64,000 nt of DNA from a bacterium. Its GTDB lineage: Bacteria > Zhuqueibacterota > Zhuqueibacteria > Residuimicrobiales > Krinioviventaceae. A program made the position numbers and the translations under genes. Positions 5,414 through 48,152 of this stretch are shown piece by piece; within the stretch, counting starts at the first letter, position 1; every line of letters begins with the position of its first letter. The notes under the pieces are model-generated. The model had not been told where the DNA came from and ran no database searches. It saw nothing but the letters and a program-made list of their open reading frames with translations. The DNA is taken from contig OY843751.1 of the NCBI GenBank assembly GCA_963693055.1, positions 3,392,001 through 3,456,000 on the forward strand, given 5' to 3'.

Positions 5414-5497
5414 TTTTCTTCCCGGGTTCAAGTATAAAATAATATAGAAAAAAAAGAACAATTCACAAATGAAATCAGGGATGCAGCTTTAGAAATG

Positions 5498-17707: not shown

Positions 17708-17729
17708 AACTAATGAGTTATCAGCCTGT

Positions 17730-17908
17730 CAACTAATAGCGCTCCACGGCTTTTTTCTCCGTGACAGTCCGGCAGTTATTCACATACCGACCCAACAATA
17801 CACATTCGCAGTTGTGTATTGTTTCGGCCTGTTATCCTTTCACATGTTGTCTACAAAACTGCAATCTCTCAAACATGTTACTTTTATAACAAGCACCTCT
17901 ATCAAGTC
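17730..17908 (-). ncRNA. Lysine riboswitch (L-box) aptamer
   Basis: Minus strand ATAGAGGTGC...AAAGG...GCCGAAA...TTGGG...GAATA...GACTGTC...GGAGCGCTA, about 178 nt, upstream of the dap/lys operon. Confidence 0.9.
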
Positions 17909-17912
17909 AATA

Positions 17913-18064: not shown

Positions 18065-18262
18065 ATGTTAAATACAATTGGAGAATTGTCTGGTAATATT
18101 TGGAAAGTACTAGATGATAAAGGTGAACTAACATTAGTTAAATTGAAAAAATCTTTAGACGCAGATGATTTTTCTCTCTACACTGCACTGGGTTGGCTGG
18201 CTAGAGAAGATAAAATCAATATTGATAAATCCGGACGTTCAGTCAAAATATCATTAAAATAA
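18065..18262 (+). CDS. Small winged-helix protein (DUF2582-like)
   Basis: IGELSGNIWKVL...ALGWLAREDKI signature; RBS GGAGG. Confidence 0.8.
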   Translation: MLNTIGELSGNIWKVLDDKGELTLVKLKKSLDADDFSLYTALGWLAREDKINIDKSGRSVKISLK

Positions 18263-18988
18263 TCAGATAAATTTTTCACGTTTTTGCAGGTTTAACAAAC
18301 CCGCAAGCAGCATAAGGATAGTGGCGGATAAAATGTACAAGCGATTTTTCATTTTCAAATCCGCCCATATCACCTCACTTATCTCTTCAGGAATGTGAAA
18401 TGGATTTAAAAACAGATTCCATTCACTCTCTCTTAAAATTCCACTCAACACCCAAAATGCCATACCAAATGCAACCAAAATTACCATAGATCCAAATCCA
18501 TTTCTAACCCAAGTAGACAGCATAAATGCAAAACACCCAATAAAAAAGATGGGAAACATGAGTTGGTAAACCATGGTGAGAATATGAAACTCGCTGATTG
18601 CTACAAAGCTGAGCAATGACAGAAAAACAAGCAAAGCAAATACCAATACATATATAATTGTCATTCTAACCAGCCAGACTTTGTATCGGTAATCCGGAAT
18701 ACCAAAGAGAATTTCAATCATCCGGTTATCCATATCGTGCTGTATACCAAATGTAGTAGGGTAAAAAATGAGCAACAGTCCGGGGAACAGCAATAAATAG
18801 TAGACAGTTGCTGCATCAGGAACAGTATCGCTGTTGAAAAATATCAGCAAACCAATCAACAGATAAAACACAAAAGCAGCTAACAAGAAATAGATAAACA
18901 GATTGCCAAAAATGATCTTTAAATTGTATCGAACAATCTTGTTGATGAGCGAAAATGAATTCCGGATTTTTGCTTTATCTATAAACAT
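18263..18988 (-). CDS. ABC-2-type permease-like membrane protein (about 6 TM)
   Basis: Hydrophobic segments with a DMDNRMIEILFGIP coupling-helix-like segment; overlaps the stop of the upstream RND-ABC gene; start could be 19003. Confidence 0.65.
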   Translation of the reverse strand: MFIDKAKIRNSFSLINKIVRYNLKIIFGNLFIYFLLAAFVFYLLIGLLIFFNSDTVPDAATVYYLLLFPGLLLIFYPTTFGIQHDMDNRMIEILFGIPDYRYKVWLVRMTIIYVLVFALLVFLSLLSFVAISEFHILTMVYQLMFPIFFIGCFAFMLSTWVRNGFGSMVILVAFGMAFWVLSGILRESEWNLFLNPFHIPEEISEVIWADLKMKNRLYILSATILMLLAGLLNLQKREKFI

Positions 18989-21900
18989 TATCTTTTTTTC
19001 CATATTGCAATAACCATAAATACGCATCTTCCAGTGTGGGCTGTACTGTTACCGCATCATCTGCCGGTTTTTCGATTGATAAACAACGAATTCTTATCTT
19101 TTCATCTACCCGCATATGATGTATTACTGTATATTTCTCACTCGTCTCACTAAACTCTGTAGGATCAATATAAAACTGCCAGATATGATCTTTGGCAAGG
19201 GTAACCATATTCATGGGATCGCCAAGATAACGCAATTGTCCCCTGTTCATAACCGCAACTTTATTACAGGAACTGGCTATATCTTCAATAATGTGTGTGG
19301 AAAAGATGACAATTCTTTCTCTGGCCAATTCTACCAGCAAGTTTCTAAAACGTATACGTTCACGGGGATCCAAGCCGGCTGTGGGTTCATCAACAACAAG
19401 AATACGTGGCAGATGTAACAGCGTTTGTGCAATTCCCACACGTTGCTTCATACCACCGGAAAATGATTCTATTTTTTTGTGCTGATGTTCCAGCATATGA
19501 ACAGCTTTTAAAACATACTCGATGCGTTCAAGCCGATCTTTTTCATTTAACAGTCCTTTAAGAATTGACTGGTAATTCAAAAACTCGAATGCCGTCATAT
19601 TCTCGTACATGCCAAATTCCTGCGGCAAATATCCAATCAATCCCTGTAATTCTTCACGCTTTTCATTGATATTGTAATGGTTTATCCAAATACGTCCACG
19701 GGACTGGTCCAAAATTCCACAGATAATGCGCATCAGTGTGGTTTTACCGGCACCATTGGGCCCCAGCAAACCAAACATACCACTGCCAATCTCGAGCGAG
19801 ATTCCATCCAATGCCCGGAACGGATTCTTTTTACGACCTATTACCGGAATAAACTGGACCAATCGATAAAAATTCTTTCGGATTCCCTTAAACTTGCCCT
19901 GTATGCGAACAATATCAATTTTTTCACGATGCAAACGATTAGAAGTGGTATAAATCGCCAATGCCAGATACCACACAACGCCGATAAAAGCAACGATGGG
20001 TATATTGTCCCATTTCATATAAAAAATAAACAGATTAATACAGGGTATCATCCACATGCAGAATTTAAACAATTTATCTGTTTTTGAACTTTTCCAGCGT
20101 TCCAACATGGGCTTGAGCAAATAAACCACAAAGAAAAATACAATATGGGACATGACAAACATCCAGAAACCACTGCGCAGGTAAAAATAGGTAAAGTAGA
20201 TCAATCCACCTAACAGGGGCAGTTCCCATACCAGGGTTTCCAGATCATGACGGGTTTTATAGGATTTAAATATACCGTCTTTTTCCCGCATATGTTTACC
20301 CTTGTTCCACTCTCTTGAAAAACGGGAATAGTCGTCATATACTTTAACCAGATGACGAATTTTTATAGTTATCGTTTCATCAGCTCCTATCATTTCAGCG
20401 TTTGCACGACGCAAGCTTGTCAAGATAAACAATGTCATGGATGGGATGACAAATAACAGTAAAAATACATCAATGAACCGCCAGAGAATACTGCTAACCT
20501 GCACATATACCAGCCAAATTCCCAGTGCCAGTAATATCACCTGAATGAGTTTAATTTTTAATGACAAACCGTTGAACCATTCAATAGCAGTTTCAAGTCC
20601 AACATAGACCGTAGGGATAAATACCAGCGTAAATAAAGTACTGAGTGATAATCCGCCTATCACAGTTATGGCAAAAGGAGCTCCAATCTGAGATACGTAT
20701 TCTGCTTTACCCATAGCCAGAGGAAGCATTGCAATAATTGTTGTAATAGCAGTGATCAGAATGGGGCGTGTTCTGGCATGTCCGGCCATCATAATCGCTC
20801 GGGTACGTGAATAATTGTTTCTAATCAACCAACGGGTATAATCTATAAAAATAATACCATTATTCACCACAACTCCCAACAAAATAAGAAATCCTATTAA
20901 TGTGTTGGCATTGAGGATGGAATTACCGGTAAAGATCAGCGCCCATAGAGATCCGATAGCAGCAAGCGGAATGGTGAACATCATAACCAATGGAGTAGAA
21001 ACCGATTCAAATACAGAAGCAAGAATCATAAAAATCAAAATAAATGCGGCTCCAATCAAAAAGTAAAAATCGTCAAGGCCCAGATCTTCATGTATAATTT
21101 CTACGGCTATACCGGAAGGGAATTGTAAATTTGCTACTAGCTGATCAATCTCGTAACGTGCATCATCAAGATACTCTTTGGAATCCAATACATCATCAAT
21201 AAACCGGTAATTGACTTGTATTAATTTTTCCTGATTTACTCTGTTAATGCCGGCAAGTCCTTCGGAATAGATAATCTGGCTGAGGTTCTGCAATTCATAA
21301 TTTCCACCGGATGAAGACGGAACCTGCAATTCCTGTAAATCCTGAAATTTCTTTTCTTCCGTATTATCACTACGGATTACAATATCATATTCTTCATCAT
21401 CAGTCTTGAAATTAACATTGGCGGAAAACTCTTCCTGAAACGCAGACAATTCACTGGACACAGAAGACAAGGGAACATTGTACATGCTGAGAATATTTTT
21501 ATCCAGCATTAAATGTATTTCGGGACGATTGTCAGAAACATTGACATTCGCATTATTAATGGATGTCAAATCTTCGAGATAGGTAACCAGATCATCAGCA
21601 ACATTACGCATGATCTGAAAATCCGTACCCTTGATTTCAATACGCTCTTCTTCCCCACCTATTCCCAGCATTCTCTCAAATGAAGCACCAGGATTACGAG
21701 AACCACCGCCTCCACGGAATCGACTGCTGGACGACGGTTCGGAAAAACTGATTTCAGATACCGGCAGCCGCATCCGGTCTATACCTTCTTCAATATTATC
21801 TTTGATCTGCGGAATGGTTCGTTTATTGATGTCATAATAATCATCTTTAAGGATGATTGTAAGTATGGCCTCTTCTTCATAAATTTTAGAGATCACATCC

Positions 21901-23678
21901 TGTTTTTCTTCCAGACTTTCAAGCTGACTTTCAACTTTGGCAACAAGCTGATCAGTATTCTCAAGTGTTGAGCCACTGGGCATGGTTACATACAGATTGA
22001 TCTCTGTGGTTTCAGCCTCACTTCCTACGTTGATACTGACAGCCAAAGCAATCAATAAAGTTACAAAAAACGCTACTACCGTCAAAACGATAGTTCGAGC
22101 AGGATACCGTAAACAGGATTTCAGCAAAACATTATAGATTTGAAACAATCGGTTTTTCATGGAAATCTGCACAAAATGGGTAATCTTGGTCATCCCCGAA
22201 TGCTTTAAAATAAAATGAATTGCCATGGGAATCAATAACAAGGCTACTACCAGAGAAACACCCAAAGTCGAAATAATAGAAACGCCTACATGTCTGCCAA
22301 GTAATTTCACAAAAACGTTGGAAGCAAAAATAAAGGGCAAAAAAACAGTAATGGTTGTCAGTGTTGCAGCAAATATGGAACGCCAAACCTGGGTTGTTCC
22401 ATTCAGTACCGCATAATCCGGATCTTTACGATTGGCATATAATCGATATATATTCTCCAGCACCACCACCGCATTGTCAAGCAGCATTCCTATGGCAAGG
22501 GCCATCCCTACCAGTGTCAGGCTGTTTATGCTGACATCAAAGGCATAAAAAAGATTAAACGCGGTAATAATAGAGATGGGGATTGCCAGGGCGATAATTA
22601 CAACCATGCGCATGTTTCTTAAAAATATCCACAAAACCAAAACAGCCATTAAACCACCGGTTAGAGCAAGTTCCTTGATCAGGTTAATATTGGTTTCAAC
22701 TGTTTCGGCAGAATCCGTTTGAATGATAACCTCAACATCATCATTCTTTAATTCGTGGTTTAATCGGTCAATAACTTTGCGTGTATTGTGAGACAACTCG
22801 ATGAGATTTACCTGAGTATCACGCACCAGCTGCAAAGTAATTGCATCTTTACCATTTACCCTGCTGATGGTCTCTTGCTGCTTTAAACCAAAATAAACAT
22901 CTGCAACATCTTTGAGGTAAACCGGACCCTCTACATCAACAATGATATTTTCAATTTGAGAAACATCCGTATAATCTGCAGTAATATTTACAAAATAATG
23001 TAAATCATTCTGATAAACATGTCCCGCAAAACTTTTGTATTGATTGTTTCTTGCAATCAATTGACGAATTGTTGCTGTTGTAATACCATAGGCCTTGCTG
23101 GCCTCTTCGCTTACAATCACTTCAATGGATTGCTGCTGCCCCCCCAGCGTTTCCACACTTGCCATACCGTCAATATTTGCAAGCTCGTCGGTAATCTTTT
23201 GATCAATGACTGCGCGTATCCGCTCAAGTCCGCCACTCCCCCGAACCTGCAATGTCATAAACATGTTTGCCAATTGTTCGGTATCAATCTTCATGACATT
23301 GATCATAAACTCGTCTTCAAGTTCGACTTTTAAAGCGGTAAGACGCTCTTCAAGACGGAGGTACGCGTACTTTATATTAACACTGGGATTAAAGTAAATA
23401 AATACCGTACTGCGACCACGATCAGCAAATGATTCTATTTTGTCAATCCCTTCAAGAGTACTGACTACACCCTCAACCGGGATAATGGCTTTTTTCTCAA
23501 TATATTCCGGGTCCGTATCCTGTGCACCGGCAATGGATACAATTAAATATGGCATTTCTGTGTTGGGCAGCAATTCCACAGGAAGCTGATAGTATGAAAC
23601 CAGTCCCAAAAGACACAGTCCCACGAATAGCATTGAGATAAAAACTTTACGATTAATAATAAAACGTACGATTTCCAT
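18975..23678 (-). CDS. AcrB-type RND permease fused to an ABC ATPase domain
   Basis: First ~1030 aa are RND (GMLLDNAVVVLENI, RTRPILIT); extra TMs follow; then GPNGAGKT, FSGGMKQR, VVDEPTAGLD and STH motifs, all in one uninterrupted ORF. Confidence 0.9.
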   Translation of the reverse strand: MEIVRFIINRKVFISMLFVGLCLLGLVSYYQLPVELLPNTEMPYLIVSIAGAQDTDPEYIEKKAIIPVEGVVSTLEGIDKIESFADRGRSTVFIYFNPSVNIKYAYLRLEERLTALKVELEDEFMINVMKIDTEQLANMFMTLQVRGSGGLERIRAVIDQKITDELANIDGMASVETLGGQQQSIEVIVSEEASKAYGITTATIRQLIARNNQYKSFAGHVYQNDLHYFVNITADYTDVSQIENIIVDVEGPVYLKDVADVYFGLKQQETISRVNGKDAITLQLVRDTQVNLIELSHNTRKVIDRLNHELKNDDVEVIIQTDSAETVETNINLIKELALTGGLMAVLVLWIFLRNMRMVVIIALAIPISIITAFNLFYAFDVSINSLTLVGMALAIGMLLDNAVVVLENIYRLYANRKDPDYAVLNGTTQVWRSIFAATLTTITVFLPFIFASNVFVKLLGRHVGVSIISTLGVSLVVALLLIPMAIHFILKHSGMTKITHFVQISMKNRLFQIYNVLLKSCLRYPARTIVLTVVAFFVTLLIALAVSINVGSEAETTEINLYVTMPSGSTLENTDQLVAKVESQLESLEEKQDVISKIYEEEAILTIILKDDYYDINKRTIPQIKDNIEEGIDRMRLPVSEISFSEPSSSSRFRGGGGSRNPGASFERMLGIGGEEERIEIKGTDFQIMRNVADDLVTYLEDLTSINNANVNVSDNRPEIHLMLDKNILSMYNVPLSSVSSELSAFQEEFSANVNFKTDDEEYDIVIRSDNTEEKKFQDLQELQVPSSSGGNYELQNLSQIIYSEGLAGINRVNQEKLIQVNYRFIDDVLDSKEYLDDARYEIDQLVANLQFPSGIAVEIIHEDLGLDDFYFLIGAAFILIFMILASVFESVSTPLVMMFTIPLAAIGSLWALIFTGNSILNANTLIGFLILLGVVVNNGIIFIDYTRWLIRNNYSRTRAIMMAGHARTRPILITAITTIIAMLPLAMGKAEYVSQIGAPFAITVIGGLSLSTLFTLVFIPTVYVGLETAIEWFNGLSLKIKLIQVILLALGIWLVYVQVSSILWRFIDVFLLLFVIPSMTLFILTSLRRANAEMIGADETITIKIRHLVKVYDDYSRFSREWNKGKHMREKDGIFKSYKTRHDLETLVWELPLLGGLIYFTYFYLRSGFWMFVMSHIVFFFVVYLLKPMLERWKSSKTDKLFKFCMWMIPCINLFIFYMKWDNIPIVAFIGVVWYLALAIYTTSNRLHREKIDIVRIQGKFKGIRKNFYRLVQFIPVIGRKKNPFRALDGISLEIGSGMFGLLGPNGAGKTTLMRIICGILDQSRGRIWINHYNINEKREELQGLIGYLPQEFGMYENMTAFEFLNYQSILKGLLNEKDRLERIEYVLKAVHMLEHQHKKIESFSGGMKQRVGIAQTLLHLPRILVVDEPTAGLDPRERIRFRNLLVELARERIVIFSTHIIEDIASSCNKVAVMNRGQLRYLGDPMNMVTLAKDHIWQFYIDPTEFSETSEKYTVIHHMRVDEKIRIRCLSIEKPADDAVTVQPTLEDAYLWLLQYGKKDNVYR

Positions 23679-23690
23679 AATTCAGTACCG

Positions 23691-26600
23691 TTAATCCGGA
23701 TATGTGGGATTGATTAACCGATCTATTTTCAGATAAACACATGGAATCACGATCAGGGTCAACAGTGTTGAACTCACCAAACCGCCAATCACTGCAAGGG
23801 CCAATGGAGATCGCAGCGAAGCGCCTTCGCCTATGCCCAACGTCAACGGCAATAAAGCCAGAATTGTCGTCAAACTGGTCATAATAATAGGACGGATACG
23901 TCGTTGTCCCGCCGCCAGTATAGCTTCTCTGCGAGGTTTTCCCTCTTGTTTGACCTGGTTTATGGCATCAACGAGAATAATAGAGTCATTCACCGCTATA
24001 CCTGCAAGCATAATCATACCAATAAATGCCATAACATTAAAAGATTGTCCCATAATCAGGAACAATAAAACAGAACCAACACCTGCAAGTGGTATTGTCA
24101 ACAAAATGGTAAAAGGATGAACCAGAGATTCAAATTGAGATGCCATTACCATATATACCAGAATGATAGATAATAATAATGCAAATTTCAAATTACCAAA
24201 AGCCTCACGGCGCATCAACTCTTCACCAGCGACCTCGTATCTGTATTCCGGAGGCAGTTCGAGCTGATCCATTTCATCCAGTATTTGAGATACAATAGCA
24301 TTCAAGGGTTTATCACTCTGGATTTGTGCAGATAATTTGCCAATTCGTACCTGATTACGACGATATATTTCATTCAATGTCTGACTGGTTTCAATTTCAG
24401 CTAACTGGTCAAGTCTATACACCTCGTCACCGGAACGAATTTCAAGCCCGGGAAGCTCGCTCAACGAGACATCCGGCACTTTGACAAGTATATCCTGACT
24501 TTCGCCTTCGTTCTGCCAGTCTCCCGCCTCACGACCGGAAAGATGGTCTTCAATCTGCTGGGTAATGGTTTCGATATTGATACCCAACAAACCCGAGCGA
24601 ACACGATCGACATGGACTTGGACTTCAGGACGTCCTTCATCAAAATTGGTAGTCATGTTTACCAGATCACTGATATTTTCCAAACGCTGTTTTGCCTGTT
24701 CAGTTAAAGTTTGGATGGTTTCCAAATCTTGTCCCTGGATCTCTACAACAATGGGTGAACTTTTAGTTCCAAGGATATTTTGCAATTCGGATTGCTCTTG
24801 AACAATGTCAAATTCAAAATCAGCAATCTGATGTAATGCTGTTGAAAGCCTTGAAACGATTTGTTTTCCGGTTCCTTTATGGTCAGGAACCAATTTAAAT
24901 AAAATGGATGCCGTATTTTCATCCTGATACTCGGTCTCTTCAAGGCCCGTCAGGCTGGTAGTGGGGCCAATAAGACTGTACAGAATTTCTATTTCATCAC
25001 CCAAAATATTTTGCACAATGGTTTCGATATTCTTTACTGTACCTTCGGTGCGATTGATCTCGGTTCCTTCCGCAAGGCGAATATTGATTGTAAAATCATT
25101 AGATTCGGTTTTGGGGATAAATTCACTGCCAACAACCGGAAGCAGAAAATATGTTCCAATAACCAGTATAACCGCAATTAATATAATTCTTCCGGAATTG
25201 TTTAATACCTTGGCCAGAAAACGGGGATACCCCGGAAATCCAACTGATGTCATTTTTTTGGATTTTTCATGCTTTAGCAACCATACACTTAGCATGGGTA
25301 TTACAAGAATTGCAACAAATAAAGACGATATCAAGGAAAACGCAACCGTCCAGGCCTGATCTTTGAACAACTCACCGGCAGAACCATGCAGATAGACGAT
25401 AGGTAAAAACACGACTATGGTTGTAAGGGTCGAAGCGGTAATTGCGCCGCCAACAGTAGCAGTGCCCTTGATGGCTGCCTCTTTGAGTGGTAAACCTTCT
25501 TCCAGGTATCGGTAAATATTTTCAACAACAATAATGGCATTGTCTACCAGCATACCGGCACCCAGAGCAAGACCTCCCAATGTCATAATATTGAGTGTTA
25601 ATCCTTTAAAATATAGCAAATTAAAAGTTGCCACAATAGATATTGGGATTGCTATACTGATAATGGATGTCACACCAATTCTTTTTAAAAACACAAACAA
25701 AACCAGTACTGCAAGCAGCACACCAATGAGTGCGGTTTGTTTGACTTCATTTACTGAGGAGATAATAAAGTCACCCTGATTTCGTATCAACTGGAATTCA
25801 TATCCGGGTAATGCGGCGTTTAATTCATCAAGCTCGTCTAGCAACCGTTCAACAGCTTTGACCGTATTGAACCGGGTTTCTTTATAAATTGCCAGAGCCA
25901 TACAGCGTTGACCGTTAACATGTACAATATTGTCCGGTTCATGGTTTATAAACTTGACCTCGGCAACATCTTTGAGAAAAACGGGAATCCGGTTTGCAAT
26001 ACTTGCATCTGAACCCGTGGTGGTAACGGTAGAAGCGGCTTCCTGTTTATAAGTCACAATTACATTTTCAATATCTTCAATGGTTTTAAACTCGCCTACA
26101 CCTTTTATAATATATTTTCGTCCCATTTCCTGAATAGAACCGCCAGACATGTTTAAATTATAGCTGGCCAGTTGCTGTGCAATCAAATCCGTTGTAATTC
26201 CAAAAGCTTCCAGCAAATAAGAATTGGTCTCAACGACAACCTCCTGAACCTCCTGACCTAACAATTCTACTTCGGCTATACCTTCAAGGCGAACCAGCTC
26301 ATTACGTATATAATTTTCAGCAACCTGACGCAATTCATCCATATCAGTAATTTCAGGATGGCTGAATCCCAACAGCATAACCGGAGCGGCGTTGGGATCG
26401 TAACGGGATATGGTCAACTCGTCAATGTCCGAGTTTTGCTCAAAACTGGTAAGAGCTTTTTGCAGATCCAGGAATGTTTCATCCATATCCGCATCCCAGG
26501 TGTATTCTACAGTAATCTCGGCAGTTCCTACACGTGAAATAGAAGAAACCTGTACTGCGTGACGCTGACGAATAGCTATGGATTCTATATTTTCCACAAA

Positions 26601-26789
26601 TTGCTTTTCTATCTCGTCAGGTGGACGTTCACCAGCTTTTAATTCAATAAAAATCTTGGGACTGTTTAAATCAGGGAACAGATCCATACCCAATTTTTTA
26701 AAAGAAATGAAACCCAGTAACAAAAATGCCAACACAAGCATTAAAATTGAAACGGGATATTGTACCGAAAATTTTGCCAGTTTTTCCAT
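23691..26789 (-). CDS. AcrB/AcrD/AcrF family RND permease
   Basis: GMLVDNAIIVVENI, RRIRPIIMT, AVIGGLVSSTLLTL; 1032 aa. Confidence 0.92.
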   Translation of the reverse strand: MEKLAKFSVQYPVSILMLVLAFLLLGFISFKKLGMDLFPDLNSPKIFIELKAGERPPDEIEKQFVENIESIAIRQRHAVQVSSISRVGTAEITVEYTWDADMDETFLDLQKALTSFEQNSDIDELTISRYDPNAAPVMLLGFSHPEITDMDELRQVAENYIRNELVRLEGIAEVELLGQEVQEVVVETNSYLLEAFGITTDLIAQQLASYNLNMSGGSIQEMGRKYIIKGVGEFKTIEDIENVIVTYKQEAASTVTTTGSDASIANRIPVFLKDVAEVKFINHEPDNIVHVNGQRCMALAIYKETRFNTVKAVERLLDELDELNAALPGYEFQLIRNQGDFIISSVNEVKQTALIGVLLAVLVLFVFLKRIGVTSIISIAIPISIVATFNLLYFKGLTLNIMTLGGLALGAGMLVDNAIIVVENIYRYLEEGLPLKEAAIKGTATVGGAITASTLTTIVVFLPIVYLHGSAGELFKDQAWTVAFSLISSLFVAILVIPMLSVWLLKHEKSKKMTSVGFPGYPRFLAKVLNNSGRIILIAVILVIGTYFLLPVVGSEFIPKTESNDFTINIRLAEGTEINRTEGTVKNIETIVQNILGDEIEILYSLIGPTTSLTGLEETEYQDENTASILFKLVPDHKGTGKQIVSRLSTALHQIADFEFDIVQEQSELQNILGTKSSPIVVEIQGQDLETIQTLTEQAKQRLENISDLVNMTTNFDEGRPEVQVHVDRVRSGLLGINIETITQQIEDHLSGREAGDWQNEGESQDILVKVPDVSLSELPGLEIRSGDEVYRLDQLAEIETSQTLNEIYRRNQVRIGKLSAQIQSDKPLNAIVSQILDEMDQLELPPEYRYEVAGEELMRREAFGNLKFALLLSIILVYMVMASQFESLVHPFTILLTIPLAGVGSVLLFLIMGQSFNVMAFIGMIMLAGIAVNDSIILVDAINQVKQEGKPRREAILAAGQRRIRPIIMTSLTTILALLPLTLGIGEGASLRSPLALAVIGGLVSSTLLTLIVIPCVYLKIDRLINPTYPD

Positions 26790-26798
26790 AATAAACCG

Positions 26799-27854
26799 CT
26801 ATCGTATTATTTTAACTTTGGAGTGATCACGCAATGTTTCATAACCTTTAATAATTATGCGATCATTTTCTTTCAGGCCTTCAAGCACTTGAACCTGGAA
26901 TGGATTTTCAATACCTGTTACAATCCGTCTGTCTTCTGCTGCTCCTTTTTCAACCACAAAAACCCGTTTTGAATCTCCCCGTGCTAAAATGATCTCTTTG
27001 GGAACAACCAACGCGCTGTCTTCACTGGCAACAATAATTTCAGACTTTACAAACATGCCCGGTCTGAATAATAACTTGGCATTATCTACTTCTACAGCAA
27101 CTTTGAAAGAACGGCTATCAGGATCCAGGGCCGGTGCAACCTGGGTAACATTGCCGTTCAGGGTATCATATTTAACCATATAATTCATAATACGCACAGG
27201 CTGTTCTTTATCAACTCGGCCTAATTCTTTACCGGGCAAAGAAAGCTCAAGATACAGTTTTCGATAGTCCATCAATTCAACGATTAACACACCCGTTTCA
27301 ACGCGTGTACCTGATGTAAAATAGGGTAAATCAACAATAACACCATCAAAAAGTGCAATAACTTTAGTTTTGGCAAGCTGTAATACAGCATTTTCATAAC
27401 TGTATTTGGCATCGATATAAGAAATTTCTGCATTTTTCAATTCTCGAAAAGTGACCCCTCCCTTTTCGTACAAGGATTGCTGTTTGGTATACTCGCTTTC
27501 AGACACTTCAAGGTTGAGCTTTTGTGACTCGAACGCGATGGAATTTTCAAGTTCAGGATTGTCCAGGAATACGATCACCTGGTCTTTTTTCACCTGATCG
27601 CCCATCTGAAACGGTTTTCCTGTCATCGGATTGTTAGCAATACGATAATATCCATTGGTTTCAGAATTCAGTTCAACAACCTTTGTTGCATAGACCGTTC
27701 CGGTTGCAGAAATATATTCCTGAATGGGCTGAGGCTTTAATTCTTCCACTGAAACCGGAACCGCAATCTGCATATCCATTCCGGCATCCTGGCGACTACA
27801 TGCCGAAAACATTACAAGAAAAGCAGCGAACAAAATGATTAAAAACTTTTTCAT
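26799..27854 (-). CDS. RND periplasmic adaptor (MFP), lipoprotein
   Basis: Lipobox FSAC; biotinyl-like/hairpin segment ALFDGVI, FRPGMFV, VLEGLKENDRII. Confidence 0.9.
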   Translation of the reverse strand: MKKFLIILFAAFLVMFSACSRQDAGMDMQIAVPVSVEELKPQPIQEYISATGTVYATKVVELNSETNGYYRIANNPMTGKPFQMGDQVKKDQVIVFLDNPELENSIAFESQKLNLEVSESEYTKQQSLYEKGGVTFRELKNAEISYIDAKYSYENAVLQLAKTKVIALFDGVIVDLPYFTSGTRVETGVLIVELMDYRKLYLELSLPGKELGRVDKEQPVRIMNYMVKYDTLNGNVTQVAPALDPDSRSFKVAVEVDNAKLLFRPGMFVKSEIIVASEDSALVVPKEIILARGDSKRVFVVEKGAAEDRRIVTGIENPFQVQVLEGLKENDRIIIKGYETLRDHSKVKIIR

Positions 27855-27874
27855 AAGATAATTCCTTGACACGT

Positions 27875-28216
27875 TTATTGTTTTTCCCTGCCGCGATACA
27901 ACTTGATTTCAACCTTTTCAAGTGTCACGAGTCCCTCTTTGATCACATCCTTAATGTGGGGCCAAAACGATTCTATTTTTTCTATTGTATCAACTATTTC
28001 AATTATAATAGGTAAATCTTCAGACAAGCGTAATATTTTTGATGTATGTAATTTACTGGTTGGACCAAATCCTTCAATACCGCGTATAACTGTAGCTCCT
28101 GCCAGCCCTTGTTCTCTGGCCTTACGTACTATCCATTCATACAAAGGTTTGTGCTCGTATTTATCACTTTCTCCAATAAAAATGCGTAACAGGTGTCCCT
28201 GTTCTTCGAGCTTCAT
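27875..28216 (-). CDS. DUF190 (PII-like fold) protein
   Basis: LLRIFIGESDKY, GLAGATVIRGIEGFG, LSEDLPIIIEIVD. Confidence 0.88.
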   Translation of the reverse strand: MKLEEQGHLLRIFIGESDKYEHKPLYEWIVRKAREQGLAGATVIRGIEGFGPTSKLHTSKILRLSEDLPIIIEIVDTIEKIESFWPHIKDVIKEGLVTLEKVEIKLYRGREKQ

Positions 28217-28226
28217 ACTGTTCTCC

Positions 28227-28604
28227 TTAAATCAAACGGGAGACAAAATCTCCCAGATAAACAGCGGATAATCCCAATACAATATGCACAACCACATTCA
28301 GTACAGCAGGTGCTATCTGTCCATCGCGAATAAAACTGAATGATTCATATCCAAAAGTGGAAAATGTTGTAAAACTTCCCAAAACGCCAACAAAAAGAAT
28401 CAACCGGGTTTCGGTATGAAACACGCCATGTGCTTCACCAATACCATTTAACAAACCAATTATAAAACAACCCAAAATATTTACAGTCATGGTACCATAA
28501 GGAAAGTATGCTTTGTCTAATATCTGGTGAACCAGACCTCCTACCGCATATCGTAATATTGCACCTACAAACCCACCTATACCTACAAGTAATGCTTTGA
28601 ACAA
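28227..28604 (-). CDS. crcB: Fluoride channel Fluc/CrcB
   Basis: GGFVGAILRY, PYGTMTVNILG, GSFTTFSTF; TTG start. Confidence 0.93.
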   Translation of the reverse strand: MFKALLVGIGGFVGAILRYAVGGLVHQILDKAYFPYGTMTVNILGCFIIGLLNGIGEAHGVFHTETRLILFVGVLGSFTTFSTFGYESFSFIRDGQIAPAVLNVVVHIVLGLSAVYLGDFVSRLI

Positions 28605-28622
28605 ATCATACTCCTGTTATTG

Positions 28623-30077
28623 CTATTTATATTCCGGAACTACCGGTTCATTTCTCACAAAATCCCACATGGATTCAATTTTTAAATTCAAAAGCGCCAG
28701 TTTATAATCAATCAAAGCAGAAATCAGGCTGTTTTTACGATCAGATAACTGGGTCTGGTACAAATTCAGATCCATACTTGTCAGGTCACCATTCTGATAT
28801 TTTTCCAGATTAATTTCATAGGTCAACTCTGAATTTCTAACATTCTGACGGGCAATTTCAATTTGAATTTCAAGGTTTTTCAGATTGCGCACAGCCTGAC
28901 GAATACCAATAATAATCTCGTCTTTTTGTGTTCTTTCACGCAATCTGTTTGTTTCTAGTGTAACTTCAGATGCTTTAATACGGGCCTTGCGTTCACCCCA
29001 GTCAAACAAGGGTATATCAAAAGAAACCGCAACTCGCTGGTTTTTGGTTGCCTCGTCATAGATGTTTGCATATTGCTCATTAGTACCAATAATACCATAA
29101 GAAACGGTTACATCCCCTTTGAATTCATTATAAGCTTTGGTTTCAGTCAAAGTAGCCAAAGCATTTTCAATATCAATACTACGTTGGCGCATTTCCATAC
29201 GGCTTGCCAGTCCGGTATCAATTGCCTTTTGCATATCAACTGTAACCGGTACATGAGTTACATCTGCGGTAACATCAACATCTTCAAGAATAGATATTCC
29301 AATCATCTGTTTAAACTGGTCCAGGGCATTGTCCCAGGTCAGTTTCGCATTCTGCATTGTTGATTTACTGGTAGCCAGGTTGACTTCTGCCTGATACAGT
29401 TCCTCCATAGCAGATATGCCAGCATCTACCTTGTTTTTAATGATCTGATAACTGGCTTCCTGATTATTATATTCTTCAACAGCGATGTTATAACTCATCT
29501 TGGCACTGTACACGCTGTAATAAGATTGTGTCACATTGTATTCCAGCATTAACATACGCAAAGCGTAATTGATAGAGGCATTTTCAAGGTCCAGCTCCAG
29601 AGATCTCAGCTCCAAACGGGTACGATTATACGTAAATATAGGCTGGTTATAACTGAGATAAAGGTTATTGCTATATGATTCCCGTTGGGTATCACTAAAT
29701 TCACTATACGCGTCTTGCCATTCCAGTTGATTGTTCAAAGATATGGTGCCATCTGTCCATTCAATAGGCTGAGAAATGCTGAAAACACCGGAATAAGACG
29801 TATTTTCATTATCATTCCATGTATTATAAAACGTATTAAACTCTCTAACCTTTGTATATTCAAAAGGTGTTACAGACAAGTTGAATTTGGAACGTAATGC
29901 AGCCTTTTGAGCTTTTAACAATTGCTGGCTGCGTTCAAGAGACAGTCGATATTGCATAATATCAGGGCTATTTTCGCGTGCTGTTTCCATTGCACTTTCA
30001 AGGGTAAACATTTTCTGAGCAAATGTCAGCGGCGTGATGCATAAAACCAAAACGATCAGAACATTGAAATATTTCAT
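28623..30077 (-). CDS. TolC family outer-membrane efflux protein
   Basis: Signal peptide; two OEP repeats (YNQPIF, FDIPLFDWG); coiled-coil helices. Confidence 0.88.
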   Translation of the reverse strand: MKYFNVLIVLVLCITPLTFAQKMFTLESAMETARENSPDIMQYRLSLERSQQLLKAQKAALRSKFNLSVTPFEYTKVREFNTFYNTWNDNENTSYSGVFSISQPIEWTDGTISLNNQLEWQDAYSEFSDTQRESYSNNLYLSYNQPIFTYNRTRLELRSLELDLENASINYALRMLMLEYNVTQSYYSVYSAKMSYNIAVEEYNNQEASYQIIKNKVDAGISAMEELYQAEVNLATSKSTMQNAKLTWDNALDQFKQMIGISILEDVDVTADVTHVPVTVDMQKAIDTGLASRMEMRQRSIDIENALATLTETKAYNEFKGDVTVSYGIIGTNEQYANIYDEATKNQRVAVSFDIPLFDWGERKARIKASEVTLETNRLRERTQKDEIIIGIRQAVRNLKNLEIQIEIARQNVRNSELTYEINLEKYQNGDLTSMDLNLYQTQLSDRKNSLISALIDYKLALLNLKIESMWDFVRNEPVVPEYK

Positions 30078-30086
30078 TTACATTCC

Positions 30087-33000
30087 TTACTGTTTAACCC
30101 ATTTAATTGCGTCTGCCAGAACCACTCTACCACCGGTCTTGTCTGACAATTCTACAACAGCTTTGCCCGATGACAGATAATAGTTCCCCAACAGTATCCA
30201 ACCATCATCAGCGGATTCAAGAGATACAGGAACTTCTTCCTTACCATCATCATGGTAGATAATATAATTAAATTCTTTTAATCCATCACTGTCTCTACCA
30301 CCACCAGAACCTCCGGGAGGTCCACCACGTCTTCTACTAAACATATTGAGCGAAGATGTATTAATATAGGTGTAAATATTATACTGTCCATTCGAGGGTA
30401 TGTCAGCAGTCCACGAAACCTTGTTGGTACCATTTCCTTTTTTCACAGCATATGCCGAGTGTATATTTTTACCCCAGAATTCATCGTTAACTGTTTTTTT
30501 CCACTGTGTAGGTATTCGCCAGGGATTTAAACCGATATATTCATCATCTTCAACTTCTTTTATACCCAGAAAACGTTTTAATATACTGGCTTCCTGTACC
30601 TGCTCAACTTTAAATCCGTCATCTTCATTATCCACAACAATTTCACCAGGAAGGATTGCGGCTTTATATTCTGCAGGGCGAATCAAATCCAAAGGAACGG
30701 CTCGCTCATTGAGCTCCATTTTTTCAAAACGCTCGCTAATTTCATTGGGAAGGTTCATAGATGTCAAAGTATTGATCGTCATACCACGGGGTTCCGTATC
30801 CAGAACTATTCCAACATGATAAGCATTTTTACTATCCAGTTTATATAACCGGGGTGGTTCTTCATCTTCATTTCCGCCGCCGCCGAATCCTCTAAAGCCA
30901 CCTCTTCCACCCATTCGGAAAGATACAGATATTACACCATCTACATCAGAATCATTCTGAATATCAAATCTGAGTTGGTAACGGGTACGGTTATTATCCA
31001 AAACTTTATAGGATTGCATGTTGGACACATAAAATGCAGGCAATTCAGTCTGATTATACCAGTTTTCTACAAAAGACTTGAACTCGGATTGGAAATCACC
31101 CGGCAGGGTCTTAACAAAAGATTCAAACCCTGCGGTTTGAAACCGGTTTTCTGCTAAATATTGTTTTAATAATTCGTCAAATGTATCAATACCAACCTGT
31201 GATTTAATTAATGAAAACAATGCTTCACTTTTTATTTTTAATACATCATTCCACATTTCAGATTCTTCTGAATTGCTCAAAACATTTGCAAGGCTGTTTT
31301 CTTCAAGAAGAAGATTGGCCTTTTCCTCTTCAACCAGGCCCTCCATCCTTCTAAAGAAACTTGGCCTGTTGTCTTGCATTTTTGTTAGCATAAATGCTTC
31401 AAATGCTTTATCCAATACCGGCCAATCTGTGGATTTTACCGTATTGATAAATGTATAAAAGTTCGGAAAAAGATTACCATCGGGTTGTTCCGCTTCATTA
31501 TTACCCCTGAAAGGACGACCAAACTGTTGTCCCTTGAATACATTGGTCACAAACATGTTGAACATTTGTGATTGACTTTCACCAGGACTTATACTGCGGT
31601 TACTGCGCTGACTGAAACGTTCCTGTCGACGAACAGACAGATTAAAATCAGCAGATTCATATTTTACCGCATTTTCTGTTAGAAAAACCTGTGCCGGTTG
31701 TACAACTTCCTGGTGGAACTGCAGCGGTTTTTCAAATGCAAGAAAATGCACCGGGACTTCAATTACTGACAATCGTTTATATGGATAATCGCTATTGAAC
31801 TGGATCTCAAGATCATTCATATTATCGCGAATCAAAGCTTCAAGTGTATCAGCAATGTCTGTAAAGAAAGGTTTATAGTAATTGTGGTTTTTATTGGTAT
31901 AAAGCTCATATTCAACACTGTCAACATTAATACTGGCTCTCTGATATTCACCAATGACAAGTGAAATTTGCGGAAGCGGAATTTCGGATATAAAATGATA
32001 TTCACCTTCTCCTGCTTTTTCAGTCTGTCCCTGGGATATCACTGTCAAGTCGGGACTGGTTTTTACGGTCATTTCAAAATCAATAAAATCCTGATTTTGT
32101 TGATAACCAAATCCATTGGTACCCATGGCACCAGCTACAGGATACCAGAGATTTTCACGGGTTAGCAAAACATAATCAGGTTTTACGAAACTGTGCTTTT
32201 TGCCCAATTTGTACATAGCCAGACTGTTTAGCAATTGTTCCTGCTCTACAGATAAATCAGGATAACAGGCAAAATCCAATGGAGCGCCTGAATAATTGAC
32301 TGTTAGCGTTTTGGTATCTCCTGCTGCAATACCGCCTGAATCGGTAATTATTAACAAGTGCTGGTTCTGTTTGAATTCAAGAGATGTATTATCTATAGAA
32401 ACCGATTTAACTTTAAATCCGGGGTTCAAGCTGAAAACAAGTTCGGTACTTTTTTTCCCAGTAGTATTCTGAATATTTAATACGGCAGTTGCTTGAATAA
32501 TGTTTCCCAGATGTTCAACATTCAGATTGCAATTTTTGACAGATACAATGGGATGGCTTTTATATTGTTCATTCAGGTTTAAAATTTGCGCACGAACATT
32601 TTTATGTTGAAAATATTGAGTAACATAACTCACAGAAAAAAATGATGCCAATGCAACAAAAATAACAAAAAACACCATAGACAAACGGTTCATGAAATTC
32701 GATTGGGGCAACCGTTTCATAAACGTAACGGTCAAGAATATGAATCCGAGTCCAAAGAAAAGATAAATTGAGCGTTGTAATATGATCTGATGCAGATCAC
32801 TAAAACCTACAAAGTCAGAAAAAGCAAGCGGCAGGTAAAACGCAACAAAGTCAAAAATATAATTCACCTTGCTGCCCAGATAAAAAATGGTCAATGCAAC
32901 CAGACCAATCATAATCACCCAGGTGACCGGAGGGTTCCGAAAAATTGACATAAAAATAAAAGCGATTCCAATGGCAAATATCATGGTTGGTAAACTGATA

Positions 33001-33458
33001 ATTAGAAAATAAACCAAAAAGTTTAATGCCTGAAACGGAACATCAGCAAAAATACCATTGACTATGGCCCCCATCAACAACACGAGTAAATTCAGCGTAA
33101 TAAAAACCGAAATTACACCTATTGTTTTACCAATAACATATTCAGCATTGGAAATAGAGCGCATATAGATAACTTCCACAGTGCTTGCTTTGGTATCTCG
33201 TTTTAAAAAGTCAGAAGCCAGAAAAACACAGAGAATAGCCTGTACCGTATTTAACATCATTAAATTGAAATAAGGTACAGAAGAAGGGATGCCTCGCAGC
33301 AGCCAGGGGACAAATTCACTCACCCCGGTAAAAAAAATAATATTTAAAAAAGTTAATAATCCAACTACAACCAATCCAAAAATCCGAAAAAACCAACTGC
33401 GAAACAACAACTTTTGTTCATAACGCGCTACTACCCAGAGATTATATAAAGAGAACAT
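30087..33458 (-). CDS. ABC-2-type permease fused to a non-catalytic M1-aminopeptidase-like ectodomain and a golvesin/xanthan-lyase-like C-terminal domain
   Basis: N-terminal TMs with EVIYMRSISNAEYVIGK; ENLWYPV and PYKRLSVIEVP but no HEXXH; IVVDNEDDGF...GWILLGNY...VLADAIKWVK. Confidence 0.7.
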   Translation of the reverse strand: MFSLYNLWVVARYEQKLLFRSWFFRIFGLVVVGLLTFLNIIFFTGVSEFVPWLLRGIPSSVPYFNLMMLNTVQAILCVFLASDFLKRDTKASTVEVIYMRSISNAEYVIGKTIGVISVFITLNLLVLLMGAIVNGIFADVPFQALNFLVYFLIISLPTMIFAIGIAFIFMSIFRNPPVTWVIMIGLVALTIFYLGSKVNYIFDFVAFYLPLAFSDFVGFSDLHQIILQRSIYLFFGLGFIFLTVTFMKRLPQSNFMNRLSMVFFVIFVALASFFSVSYVTQYFQHKNVRAQILNLNEQYKSHPIVSVKNCNLNVEHLGNIIQATAVLNIQNTTGKKSTELVFSLNPGFKVKSVSIDNTSLEFKQNQHLLIITDSGGIAAGDTKTLTVNYSGAPLDFACYPDLSVEQEQLLNSLAMYKLGKKHSFVKPDYVLLTRENLWYPVAGAMGTNGFGYQQNQDFIDFEMTVKTSPDLTVISQGQTEKAGEGEYHFISEIPLPQISLVIGEYQRASINVDSVEYELYTNKNHNYYKPFFTDIADTLEALIRDNMNDLEIQFNSDYPYKRLSVIEVPVHFLAFEKPLQFHQEVVQPAQVFLTENAVKYESADFNLSVRRQERFSQRSNRSISPGESQSQMFNMFVTNVFKGQQFGRPFRGNNEAEQPDGNLFPNFYTFINTVKSTDWPVLDKAFEAFMLTKMQDNRPSFFRRMEGLVEEEKANLLLEENSLANVLSNSEESEMWNDVLKIKSEALFSLIKSQVGIDTFDELLKQYLAENRFQTAGFESFVKTLPGDFQSEFKSFVENWYNQTELPAFYVSNMQSYKVLDNNRTRYQLRFDIQNDSDVDGVISVSFRMGGRGGFRGFGGGGNEDEEPPRLYKLDSKNAYHVGIVLDTEPRGMTINTLTSMNLPNEISERFEKMELNERAVPLDLIRPAEYKAAILPGEIVVDNEDDGFKVEQVQEASILKRFLGIKEVEDDEYIGLNPWRIPTQWKKTVNDEFWGKNIHSAYAVKKGNGTNKVSWTADIPSNGQYNIYTYINTSSLNMFSRRRGGPPGGSGGGRDSDGLKEFNYIIYHDDGKEEVPVSLESADDGWILLGNYYLSSGKAVVELSDKTGGRVVLADAIKWVKQ

Positions 33459-33472
33459 AGTTTGCCTCAAAA

Positions 33473-34372
33473 TTAAAAAATAATGTGTTCTTTATTTTCA
33501 ACACCAAACTCCATGCGGTAAACATATGCATGTTCAAGATTGGGTTCGATGGGTTTTCCGGGGAAATCGTTCAACTCTTCAGCAACAACCTGAACTTCCC
33601 AGCCATGGTCTGATGGAATTGTTGAAATAACCGGATACTTTTCTTTAATCCCTTCAAGCTCCTGGTCCACAGCTTCAATAGCCCATACATGACCGCGGCA
33701 TTCCTCAATTAACAGCTCGGGTGAATCATTAAAGATAACTTGTCCCTTGTTCAACAAAGCCATATCCGTACAGGTACTGGAAATATCGCCTACAATGTGT
33801 GTAGAGAGAATAATAATAACATCTTGTGTGCTTAATTCAGACAATAAATTCCGAAAACGAATACGTTCCTCAGGATCAAGACCGGTTGTAGGTTCATCGA
33901 CAATGATAATTTTAGGTGTACCAATCAAAGCCTGAGCAATACCCAACCGACGTTTCATACCACCCGAGAGTTTGGTTGCCTGTCTGTCGCGTACCTGAAA
34001 TAAACCAACGCGTTCCAGCATTTCATCAACAGCGTTCATGCGTTCGGCTTTCTTTTTCAAACCGGCAAGGCAACCTACATAATCAAGAAATTCCCAGGTC
34101 CTCAAACGTGAAACCACCTGAAAATCCTGTGGAAGGTAGCCCAGAACCGCACGAATTTCTTTGCGGTTCTTTTGCAGGTCCCAATCATTCACCTTGACGA
34201 CACCCTTACTTGGCTTTAACAAGGTTACCAAAATACGCATTAGAGAAGTTTTGCCCGCCCCATTAGGACCCAATAAACCAAACATCCCGTTATGAATTTC
34301 AAGGTTAACATTGTTTAAAGCCTGGTGTCCATTTTTGTAAATTTGAGCTAGATTTTGGATAGAGATGTGCAT
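33473..34372 (-). CDS. ABC transporter ATP-binding protein
   Basis: GPNGAGKT, LSGGMKRR, IVDEPTTGLD, STH. Confidence 0.93.
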   Translation of the reverse strand: MHISIQNLAQIYKNGHQALNNVNLEIHNGMFGLLGPNGAGKTSLMRILVTLLKPSKGVVKVNDWDLQKNRKEIRAVLGYLPQDFQVVSRLRTWEFLDYVGCLAGLKKKAERMNAVDEMLERVGLFQVRDRQATKLSGGMKRRLGIAQALIGTPKIIIVDEPTTGLDPEERIRFRNLLSELSTQDVIIILSTHIVGDISSTCTDMALLNKGQVIFNDSPELLIEECRGHVWAIEAVDQELEGIKEKYPVISTIPSDHGWEVQVVAEELNDFPGKPIEPNLEHAYVYRMEFGVENKEHIIF

Positions 34373-34443
34373 AATCAAGTCTTTATATTAGAGATGATAT
34401 AAAATTACCTGAAAGTTGGAATCCCAAATGGATTTCTGTAAAT

Positions 34444-34477: not shown

Positions 34478-34508
34478 AATAAAAAAATCCCGCTATTGAG
34501 CGGGATTT
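34478..34508 (-). terminator. Intrinsic terminator ending the valS...LOG run
   Basis: AAATCCCGCT-CAAT-AGCGGGATTT stem with a long T-tract on the minus strand. Confidence 0.75.
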
Positions 34509-40181: not shown

Positions 40182-40898
40182 TTATAATTTACCAAATAGA
40201 CTCTGGAATTTTAACTTCCAGACCATCCAAATGGCTTCGCGAAGTATTTTTTTAGACATTTTGGAAATACCGGCACGACGATCAAGGAAAATGATAGGAA
40301 TTTCACCCAGTGTAAATCCTTTTTTCCATGCCTTGTAACTCATTTCAATCTGAAATGAATACCCATTAGATGTTACTTTATCGAGATCTAAAGATTCCAA
40401 TACTTTACGATTAAAACATTTAAATCCGCTTGTACAATCATGAAGAGGCAAACCGGTAATAATGCGGGTATATAAACTGGCACCCATACTTAATAAGAGC
40501 CGACTCAATGGCCAGTTAATTACATTAACACCATTCACATAACGTGACCCCATAACCAGATCATAATCTTTTGCAGCATTGATCAGGTTTGGCAATTCTT
40601 TGGGATCATGTGAAAAATCAGCATCCATTTCGATCATGTAATCATAATCACGTTCCAGAGCATATTTGAAGCCGGCAACGTATGCTGTACCTAATCCTTG
40701 TTTGCCTTCCCGGCTCATCAGGTGAATGCGGGAATCATTTTCAGATAAACGGGTAACCAAATCACCTGTACCATCGGGAGAATTGTCATCTACAATGAGG
40801 ATGTCAAGATTTTCAATATTTTGTTCAAATACGGCAGAGACCAGGTTTTCAATATTTTCCCGTTCATTATAGGTTGGAACAATAACCAATGTTTTCAA
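40182..40898 (-). CDS. Polyprenol-phosphate mannose synthase (GT2, Ppm1/DPM1-like)
   Basis: VPTYNE, VDDNSPDGT, GLGTAY, MDADFSH, GYSFQIE. Confidence 0.88.
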   Translation of the reverse strand: MKTLVIVPTYNERENIENLVSAVFEQNIENLDILIVDDNSPDGTGDLVTRLSENDSRIHLMSREGKQGLGTAYVAGFKYALERDYDYMIEMDADFSHDPKELPNLINAAKDYDLVMGSRYVNGVNVINWPLSRLLLSMGASLYTRIITGLPLHDCTSGFKCFNRKVLESLDLDKVTSNGYSFQIEMSYKAWKKGFTLGEIPIIFLDRRAGISKMSKKILREAIWMVWKLKFQSLFGKL

Positions 40899-40916
40899 AG
40901 GCTACTCCGCGATAAA

Positions 40917-41801: not shown

Positions 41802-41805
41802 AGAA

Positions 41806-42264
41806 TCAGATCTTGCAGCCTTTATCACGGAACTGTTTCAACTTTACTTTAATACTTTCATTGGTAAGAGAAAGCATTTGTGCTACATAGATAGCAGCAT
41901 TTGCCGCACCGGCTTTACCAATTGCCATAGTAGCTACCGGTACACCTTTGGGCATTTGCACAATAGCATAAAGAGCGTCAACACCATTCAATGCGGAACC
42001 TGCTAGAGGAACACCAATAACCGGAACAGTTGTCATGCTGGCAATTACACCCGGTAAATGAGCTGCCATACCGGCACCTGCAATAATAGCAGAAAAACCA
42101 CGTGCTTCGGCATTTTTTGCAAACTCGGCAGTTTGCTCAGGGGTGCGATGTGCAGATAAAGTAAAAACTTCGCTTTCTATCCCAAAATATTGTAAATATT
42201 CTTTTGCAAGGGCCATTACTTCAGCATCTGAAGTACTTCCCATAACGATTGCTGCTTTTGGCAT
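41806..42264 (-). CDS. purE: N5-CAIR mutase
   Basis: MGSTSD, SAHRTP, AGMAAHLPG, QMPKGVPVAT. Confidence 0.95.
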   Translation of the reverse strand: MPKAAIVMGSTSDAEVMALAKEYLQYFGIESEVFTLSAHRTPEQTAEFAKNAEARGFSAIIAGAGMAAHLPGVIASMTTVPVIGVPLAGSALNGVDALYAIVQMPKGVPVATMAIGKAGAANAAIYVAQMLSLTNESIKVKLKQFRDKGCKI

Positions 42265-42267
42265 TAT

Positions 42268-43326: not shown

Positions 43327-43339
43327 AAGTAACCCCATT

Positions 43340-44326: not shown

Positions 44327-44348
44327 CCGTTCATTCCTTCATAAAAGG

Positions 44349-47015: not shown

Positions 47016-47030
47016 TATGGATCTCCGATA

Positions 47031-48149: not shown

Positions 48150-48152
48150 AGA

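Follow-up and report, generated by a model that had tools for sequence, protein, structure and literature searches.

An RND permease fused to an ABC ATPase in a conserved gene cassette that may encode a tethered two-stage exporter

In a bacterium of the family Krinioviventaceae (phylum Zhuqueibacterota), an RND (resistance-nodulation-division) permease and an ABC (ATP-binding cassette) ATPase are encoded as one polypeptide, the product of a gene that belongs to a compact cassette of transport genes. The cassette lies in a stretch of 64,000 nucleotides (GenBank assembly GCA_963693055.1, contig OY843751.1, positions 3,392,001 to 3,456,000), hereafter the window, whose numbering is used throughout. 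The reading that we favour, with a probability of about 0.5, is that of a tethered two-stage exporter, in which a type V ABC transporter is joined to a heteromeric pump composed of RND subunits, a membrane fusion protein (MFP) and TolC, and cargo is handed over from one to the other. Taken together, the parts would make one heterodimeric type V ABC transporter, composed of a free nucleotide-binding domain (NBD1), the fused ATPase and two transmembrane permeases (TMD1 and TMD2), together with one heteromeric RND pump.

Nine open reading frames (ORFs) on the minus strand span positions 18263-34378, with gaps of 2, 9, 18, 10, 2, 9 and 12 nt and one overlap of 53 nt. In the order of transcription they encode NBD1, TMD1 (1127 aa), TolC, a Fluc channel, a DUF190 protein, the MFP, RND1, the RND2-ATPase fusion (1567 aa) and TMD2 (254 aa). 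An earlier note on this DNA, made from its letters only, had described nine tightly spaced co-directional genes, all of which are found where it placed them, and had inferred from them a hybrid ABC-RND-TolC export machine. The parts list of that machine stands, as two ATPases, two putative ABC-2 permeases, two RND subunits, an MFP and TolC are all present. Fluc and DUF190 are passengers, because they occur in only 2 of 113 distinct related loci, both from the family of the window. These 113 loci were pooled from three locus searches, and counts of gene order refer only to those with enough room. The conserved core is a set of seven genes, NBD1-TMD1-TolC-MFP-RND1-RND2/ATPase-TMD2.

The fusion gene (18975..23678) is read in one frame and its product has 18 predicted membrane helices, with the Pfam domains ACR_tran (residues 3-1027) and ABC_tran (residues 1291-1434) in the single ORF. 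Residues 1-1027 (20598..23678) represent the RND2 domain. After the last RND transmembrane helix (TM12) come two extra membrane helices at about residues 1040-1089 (20412..20561), indicated by hydropathy and by helices in an AlphaFold2 model, followed by the first beta-strand of the ATPase with its A-loop Tyr (residues 1103-1114; 20337..20372), recognised from invariant residues and structural alignment. An insert of about 170 aa with four membrane helices (19821..20336) is placed between ATPase strands 1 and 2 by the model, by structural alignment and by the positive-inside pattern, and the remaining ATPase, from about residue 1287 (18975..19820), contains all the catalytic motifs. The junction, which the earlier note placed at about 20380-20600, is more than a simple linker: it contains six further predicted membrane helices, and four of these fall within the ATPase fold.

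Several lines of evidence concern this unusual arrangement. The AlphaFold2 model of residues 1026-1567 has a mean confidence (pLDDT) of 89 and a predicted template-modelling score (pTM) of 0.77, with strands at residues 1105-1114 and 1287-1297. Residues 1101-1103 (76-78 of the model) superpose on residues 1-2 of solved ATPases, and the structural alignment to one of these, 1vpl, has a Z score of 27.3 and a root-mean-square deviation of 1.6 with 234 of 238 residues aligned. The alignment and the modelled strands thus point to a four-helix membrane bundle inserted in the hairpin that bears the A-loop Tyr, so that four of the six extra helices are predicted to lie within the ATPase fold itself. 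The strand motif IKIRHLVKVY (residues 1105-1114) resembles the start of NBD1, ISIQNLAQIY; I1105, K1112 and Y1114 show no variation across 91 sequences, and the same holds for GPNGAGK (Walker A), YLPQ (Q-loop), SGGMKQ (signature), DEP (Walker B) and STH (H-switch). In parallel, Lys/Arg counts following the positive-inside pattern put the long loops and the fused ATPase in the cytoplasm. In a structural search with the model of residues 1026-1567, the matches listed were taken up by ATPases and gave no pointer to the origin of the six extra helices, and a search of the Atlas with the linker gave no usable match.

A fusion of this kind might arise from an assembly error or from the chance loss of a stop codon, an explanation that we consider hardly credible. 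Two contigs, probably from the source sample, agree with positions 18200-24000 at every base, and one contig from another study (20272-24000) runs through the junction ungapped, differing by 275 substitutions. The earlier note had called for read support at the junction, and these three contigs cross it unbroken. The same note had proposed a search for proteins combining the two domains. When residues 1000-1567 were used as query, 7999 candidates were scored and 4094 passed an expectation value (E) of 0.001, many surely via the ATPase alone; among the best 120 protein matches (56-69% identity), PF00873 and PF00005 are both present in all 120. A profile of the linker alone matches 76 of 167 genomes of the window's phylum, 105 of which were graded as good quality. 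The linker is unbroken in one frame in 67 of these carriers, lies at contig edges in 4 and is split in 5, and RND, linker and ATPase share one ORF in 107 of the 113 related loci. Compared with a genome of the same genus (G085), the ratio of nonsynonymous to synonymous substitution rates (dN/dS) is 0.016 for the RND domain, 0.019 and 0.047 for parts of the linker and 0.036 for the ATPase, and the fusion is under purifying selection. A structured linker under such selection, unbroken in most carriers and spanned by contigs, rules out an artefact. The observation in its favour comes from G085 itself, where a one-base insertion shifts the frame in the linker; since dN/dS is low on both sides, this is probably an assembly error or a very recent event.

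Three other interruptions look genuine. In G147 (loci L056 and L153), G160 (L151) and G163 (L152) the break falls in the basic loop that connects helices two and three of the insert, and the halves end and start as clean ORFs, with the second half of G163 running off its contig. In G147 the two halves are on different contigs. In G147 and G160 the ATPase half retains all motifs, with dN/dS of 0.20 and 0.13, respectively, against an intact relative, in comparisons made at high dS. As these natural splits keep both halves, with intact ATPase motifs in the two tested, the covalent link can evidently be lost. In a further genome (G126, L154:5500-5720), the fusion is interrupted immediately ahead of ATPase strand 1 by a short palindromic inverted-repeat insertion, which leaves a possible new start codon. 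One more genome (G140, L155) carries an intact fusion plus a short RND-side fragment that ends at the loop used in G147 and may be a binning artefact.

Conserved synteny, the other expectation of the earlier note, is borne out as well. The complete seven-gene order is present in 24 of 34 loci with room, the other ten being rearranged, split or partial; in 94 of 97 the gene next after the fusion is that of TMD2, RND1 precedes it in 87 of 90, and the order outer membrane factor-MFP-RND1-RND2 is kept in 75 of 82. Neither a fusion restricted to a single assembly nor homologues that are split and non-syntenic, which the note had named as outcomes that would undermine it, were encountered. Among the 167 phylum genomes the linker is found in 76, TMD1 in 81 (including one unpublished genome, G162, on which none of our conclusions depends), TMD2 in 82 and all three in 73, and the 105 good-quality genomes give 49, 50 and 51, respectively. 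In a Bacteroidota family (that of locus L120, titled Prolixibacteraceae), 107 of 121 genomes have the linker, 106 have both linker and TMD1, 12 have neither and 3 have one. Against a patchy distribution, the co-inheritance of the fusion with both permeases is nearly strict; the sampled genomes are kin, and the counts are given without a test statistic. In four genomes (G076, G077, G079 and G091) the locus comprises only RND1-RND2/ATPase-TMD2, yet TMD1 is found elsewhere in the genome.

In Bacteroidota at large the fusion is rare (4 of 401 sampled genomes, centre genome included and with shallow scoring). Lineages named for the 80 loci retained out of 319 include KSB1, Calditrichota, Bacteroidales, Prolixibacteraceae, Marinilabiliaceae, Melioribacteraceae, Krumholzibacteria, Latescibacterota and Zixiibacteriota, and the single Actinomycetota and Chloroflexota loci of that set are on small contigs that may be misbinned. 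At 50% clustering the linker profile collects 149 representatives, many of which are fragmentary. Named TMD1 relatives come from Mangrovibacterium, Sunxiuqinia and Gaoshiqia, which are cultured genera, and TMD1 had no match among plasmids. Two genomes carry TMD1 in two copies (G008, with one of each subtype, and G170), and at two loci (L051 and L055) the block of five genes upstream is inverted and transcribed away from the fusion gene, with all seven still together.

The splits and the co-inheritance both bear on the possibility that the tether only sets assembly or stoichiometry, with the ABC and RND parts sharing a scaffold, perhaps TolC and the MFP, while handling different cargoes. One TolC and one MFP would serve both modules, and the fusion is naturally split at two places in the linker with the halves retained, as might be expected of such an arrangement. 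Nevertheless, the ABC and RND parts are present or absent together in a near-strict manner, and in the loop-split genomes strand 1 of the ATPase is left on the RND half, so that a functional ATPase could form only by assembling on the RND protein. On balance, a mere scaffold seems decidedly unlikely.

The ABC half of the cassette would have the composition of a type V exporter. NBD1 (33473..34378) is a DrrA/GldA/ABCA-like ATPase (Pfam ABC_tran, E 4.9e-31) whose best NCBIfam matches, drrA and GldA, are both below cut-off; GldA is also the best NCBIfam ABC match of the fused ATPase, again below cut-off. Walker A, Q-loop, signature, Walker B and H-switch are found in 29 of 29 distinct NBD1 homologues, and both ATPase domains of the cassette have the A-loop along with these five motifs. 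The suggestion of the earlier note that the two are paralogues agrees with their 40% identity and with a tree that groups them as sisters against a background of 14 further ATPases from this genome (support 99/95, from a small sample with long outgroup branches). Both ATPase trees divide into the same two subtypes, and each ATPase gene adjoins one permease gene.

TMD1 (30087..33470, with a likely start at 33458) matches Pfam Golvesin_C and, weakly, Peptidase_M1. Its AlphaFold2 model (pLDDT 91, pTM 0.90) has an elbow helix and seven membrane helices, followed by a large periplasmic domain for which the top Foldseek matches are all M1 aminopeptidases (E 1e-18 over about 640 columns), which confirms the M1 fold. 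The C-terminal beta domain is golvesin-like and corresponds by profile to the C-terminus of xanthan lyase (E 2e-11). The zinc-binding HExxH is found in 0 of 131 TMD1 members, and the YxKG of M1 enzymes aligns to K-L-K-G, with the Tyr replaced by Lys. An active peptidase is rejected on these grounds, and the M1 domain is best read as a dead peptidase that likely serves as a binding platform. Among named Atlas clusters, those nearest to TMD1 are ABC permease/M1 aminopeptidase fusions (score 0.88), to be taken as a lead only. TMD2 (18263..19027, with a likely start at 19003) is a small six-helix protein, a probable ABC-2-type permease, whose gene overlaps the stop of the fusion. In its family 12 of 96 members match ABC2_membrane_3 (PF12698), and the window copy has no Pfam match; some relatives of TMD1 carry PF12679, and the TMD1 of the window has no such match. 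A comparison of the TMD2 profile with solved sequences gave no match.

The fate of the peptidase fold invites another explanation, in which the dead peptidase acts as a sensor for a periplasmic peptide or glycopeptide and the ABC part transports nothing, switching the RND pump on and off instead. An M1 fold kept without HExxH in 131 members is what a binding domain would look like, and no regulator gene is conserved beside the cassette. The retention of two complete putative ABC-2 permeases and of two motif-complete ATPases is, by contrast, what a working exporter needs, and we regard a sensor and gate as quite unlikely.

On the RND side, RND1 (23691..26789) is a 12-helix permease resembling the hydrophobe/amphiphile efflux (HAE) type (ACR_tran, E 1e-212), with D-N in TM4, N-D in TM10 and R-P in TM11, and RND2 has D-N, N-N and R-P at the same places. 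The ACR_tran match covers 1019-1020 of 1021 positions in both proteins, each a full RND permease with 12 helices and the porter domain in the periplasm. The closest solved chain to RND1 is MdtB (9lyq, E 1.7e-95), and the best score against the curated families MdtB, MdtC and RND_permease_1/2 is 589 bits, with a cut-off of 1250. The partners are an RND-type periplasmic adaptor, the MFP (26799..27872; Pfam HlyD_D23; TIGR01730 at 177 bits against a cut-off of 95), and the TolC-family outer membrane factor (28623..30077; Pfam OEP, E 1e-45).

The ion relay of AcrB consists of D407, D408 and K940 with R971, and changing one of them abolishes efflux (PMC8277102). The full relay is present in neither RND1 nor RND2: the equivalents of D407 and R971 are kept, and nearly every homologue has Asn in place of D408 and K940. 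In particular, TM4 reads D-N in 81 of 82 RND1 and 91 of 93 RND2 sequences, no matched TM10 has Lys, and 81 and 93 of these two sets, respectively, retain the TM4 Asp; the RND1 set of 82 may include a few RNDs from outside the cassette. Nothing on relay residues came from a preprint on FemT/SwrC.

These substitutions raise the question of whether the RND trimer is powered by ATP, with closure of the ATPase pair being passed through the six extra helices to the trimer and replacing or assisting the ion relay. Besides the two Asn residues, membrane helices built into the nucleotide-binding A-loop hairpin would suit such coupling, and MmpL7, the RND partner of DrrABC, is reported to be without a proton relay (PMC11539658). 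However, the same D-N/N-N signature is common to 4 of the 9 other RNDs of the genome, which are encoded in plain MFP-RND operons; three of the four have no co-directional ABC genes nearby, and upstream of the fourth, past a TetR gene, lies a MacB-like ABC set of its own. As proof of ATP drive, the missing D408 and K940 are weakened by this in-genome control, because stand-alone RNDs share the signature, which is a subfamily trait. With the TM4 Asp also kept, we hold an ATP-powered RND to be unlikely. Since the D407 and R971 equivalents are retained and the signature is common to stand-alone RNDs, ion coupling of the cassette RNDs is plausible.

In the tethered two-stage exporter that we favour, the fused ATPase would pair with NBD1 beneath the TMD1/TMD2 permease pair. 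RND1 and RND2 would form a heterotrimer with a single RND2, as in MdtB2C, the stoichiometry of the MdtBC heterotrimer, giving one ABC transporter per trimer, and the six extra helices would anchor the ATPase to the membrane next to the permeases. The ABC transporter would flip or lift an amphipathic, membrane-derived cargo to the periplasmic side, where the dead peptidase and the carbohydrate-binding-like domains of TMD1 may hold it, and the ion-driven RND would then push it out through TolC. As to the nature of the cargo, our guess is a peptide or glycan attached to a lipid and belonging to a housekeeping pathway of the envelope.

A number of observations weigh against this model. The covalent link is dispensable, as the fusion is split in 5 of 76 carriers, in a genuine-looking way in three. 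Co-inheritance among kin is not independent evidence. No neighbour gene recurs across lineages in the related loci, and hence there is no pointer to the cargo. The comparison between the TMD1 and TMD2 profiles is weak (probability 1%, E 0.046 over 206 columns), and the Asn at the D408 and K940 positions sits uneasily with a conventional relay.

Known systems offer partial parallels. Like MdtABC-TolC, the cassette has two paralogous RND subunits, one MFP and a TolC-type channel, and a heterotrimer has been noted for MdtBC (PMC8277102). In contrast, MdtABC lacks an ABC component, MdtB carries D-D in TM4 and Lys in TM10, at which places RND1 and RND2 show D-N and Asn, and the cassette RNDs score far below the MdtB and MdtC family cut-offs. 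The nearest functional precedent, by analogy, appears to be the unfused mycobacterial pair DrrABC and MmpL7. Both the type V transporter DrrABC and the RND protein MmpL7 are needed to export one lipid, phthiocerol dimycocerosate (PDIM), and their cooperation is inferred from genetics, with 'no direct evidence' of contact (PMC11539658). The likeness lies in a type V ABC with two different permeases plus an RND, and drrA is the best NCBIfam match of NBD1; the mycobacterial proteins differ in being separate, in having an MmpL-type RND and one ATPase gene, and in lacking an MFP, TolC and a peptidase-like ectodomain.

Fusions of an ABC-2 permease to an M1 aminopeptidase share the M1 fold with TMD1, but the cassette protein lacks the zinc motif and has a golvesin-like domain in addition, its partner permease is encoded by a gene of its own, and there is a tie to an RND. 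Type V exporters with large extracellular domains include GldAFG and NosDFY as well as ABCA1 and ABCA3, and among solved sequences the last two come closest to the fused ATPase; to our knowledge, no type V exporter is joined to an RND or has membrane helices in the first hairpin of its ATPase. MacAB-TolC and type 1 secretion systems likewise combine an ABC ATPase, an MFP and TolC, but in them the ABC protein is itself the inner-membrane pump, whereas the cassette has an RND-type MFP and two full RNDs. NodIJ/NolG/NodT may represent a further parallel.

The source genome has one copy of the cassette, whose GC content is the same as that of the remainder of the window. Among the sequencing runs listed as containing this DNA, none is of RNA. 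The passenger genes sit between those for TolC and the MFP with gaps of 2-18 nt: Fluc/CrcB (28227..28604), a local insert, scores above the TIGR00494 cut-off and matches Pfam CRCB, and the DUF190 protein (27875..28216; Pfam DUF190) accompanies it as a non-core member. Fluoride export as the role of the cassette is rejected in view of their rarity among related loci and the lack of a fluoride riboswitch in the window. Just upstream, a terminator-like hairpin on the minus strand (34485-34508), a consensus match only, separates the cassette from the preceding gene; it is found on both strands, with 0.3 expected, and promoter scans were at or near chance.

Downstream, a lysine riboswitch (Rfam RF00168, 125 bits; 17729-17909, minus strand) heads the next operon, which encodes an M20 peptidase, lysC, dapB, dapA, dapF, an aminotransferase and a decarboxylase dependent on pyridoxal 5'-phosphate (PLP). 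A link of the cassette to lysine synthesis is rejected, as the dap operon has its own riboswitch and neighbours vary with lineage. Two LysA-family PLP-dependent decarboxylases (4121-5461 and 10180-11496, minus strand) belong to one gene run, with CAAX protease-like, GNAT, GARS-like ATP-grasp and Arg-tRNA-transferase-like genes between them. A glycosylation-type cluster (40182-48932, minus strand) comprises GT2, RmlD, DUF4837, lysylphosphatidylglycerol synthase-like, TMEM260-like O-mannosyltransferase, GT4 and methyltransferase genes. The other window genes scanned are housekeeping.

Tripartite exporters are classed by their inner-membrane engine as ABC, RND or major facilitator superfamily (MFS) systems (PMC8277102). 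No description of an RND-ABC fusion was found in the open-access literature searched; an automatic protein name of the Joint Genome Institute (JGI) lists both the RND and the ABC domains. The fusion is thus annotated but apparently undescribed, a hybrid of two known kinds of transporter. Collectively, the cassette places RND and ABC, ordinarily regarded as distinct machines, in one polypeptide that has been conserved over long evolution and is near-core in one Bacteroidota family, with two further unusual features, namely the membrane bundle within the first beta-hairpin of the ATPase and a peptidase fold that now likely serves for binding. A natural ABC-RND fusion would make the hand-off one purifiable object for electron cryo-microscopy (cryo-EM). 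Were it true that ATP drives the RND, a class of ion-coupled transporters would run wholly or partly on an ABC motor, which would be categorically new.

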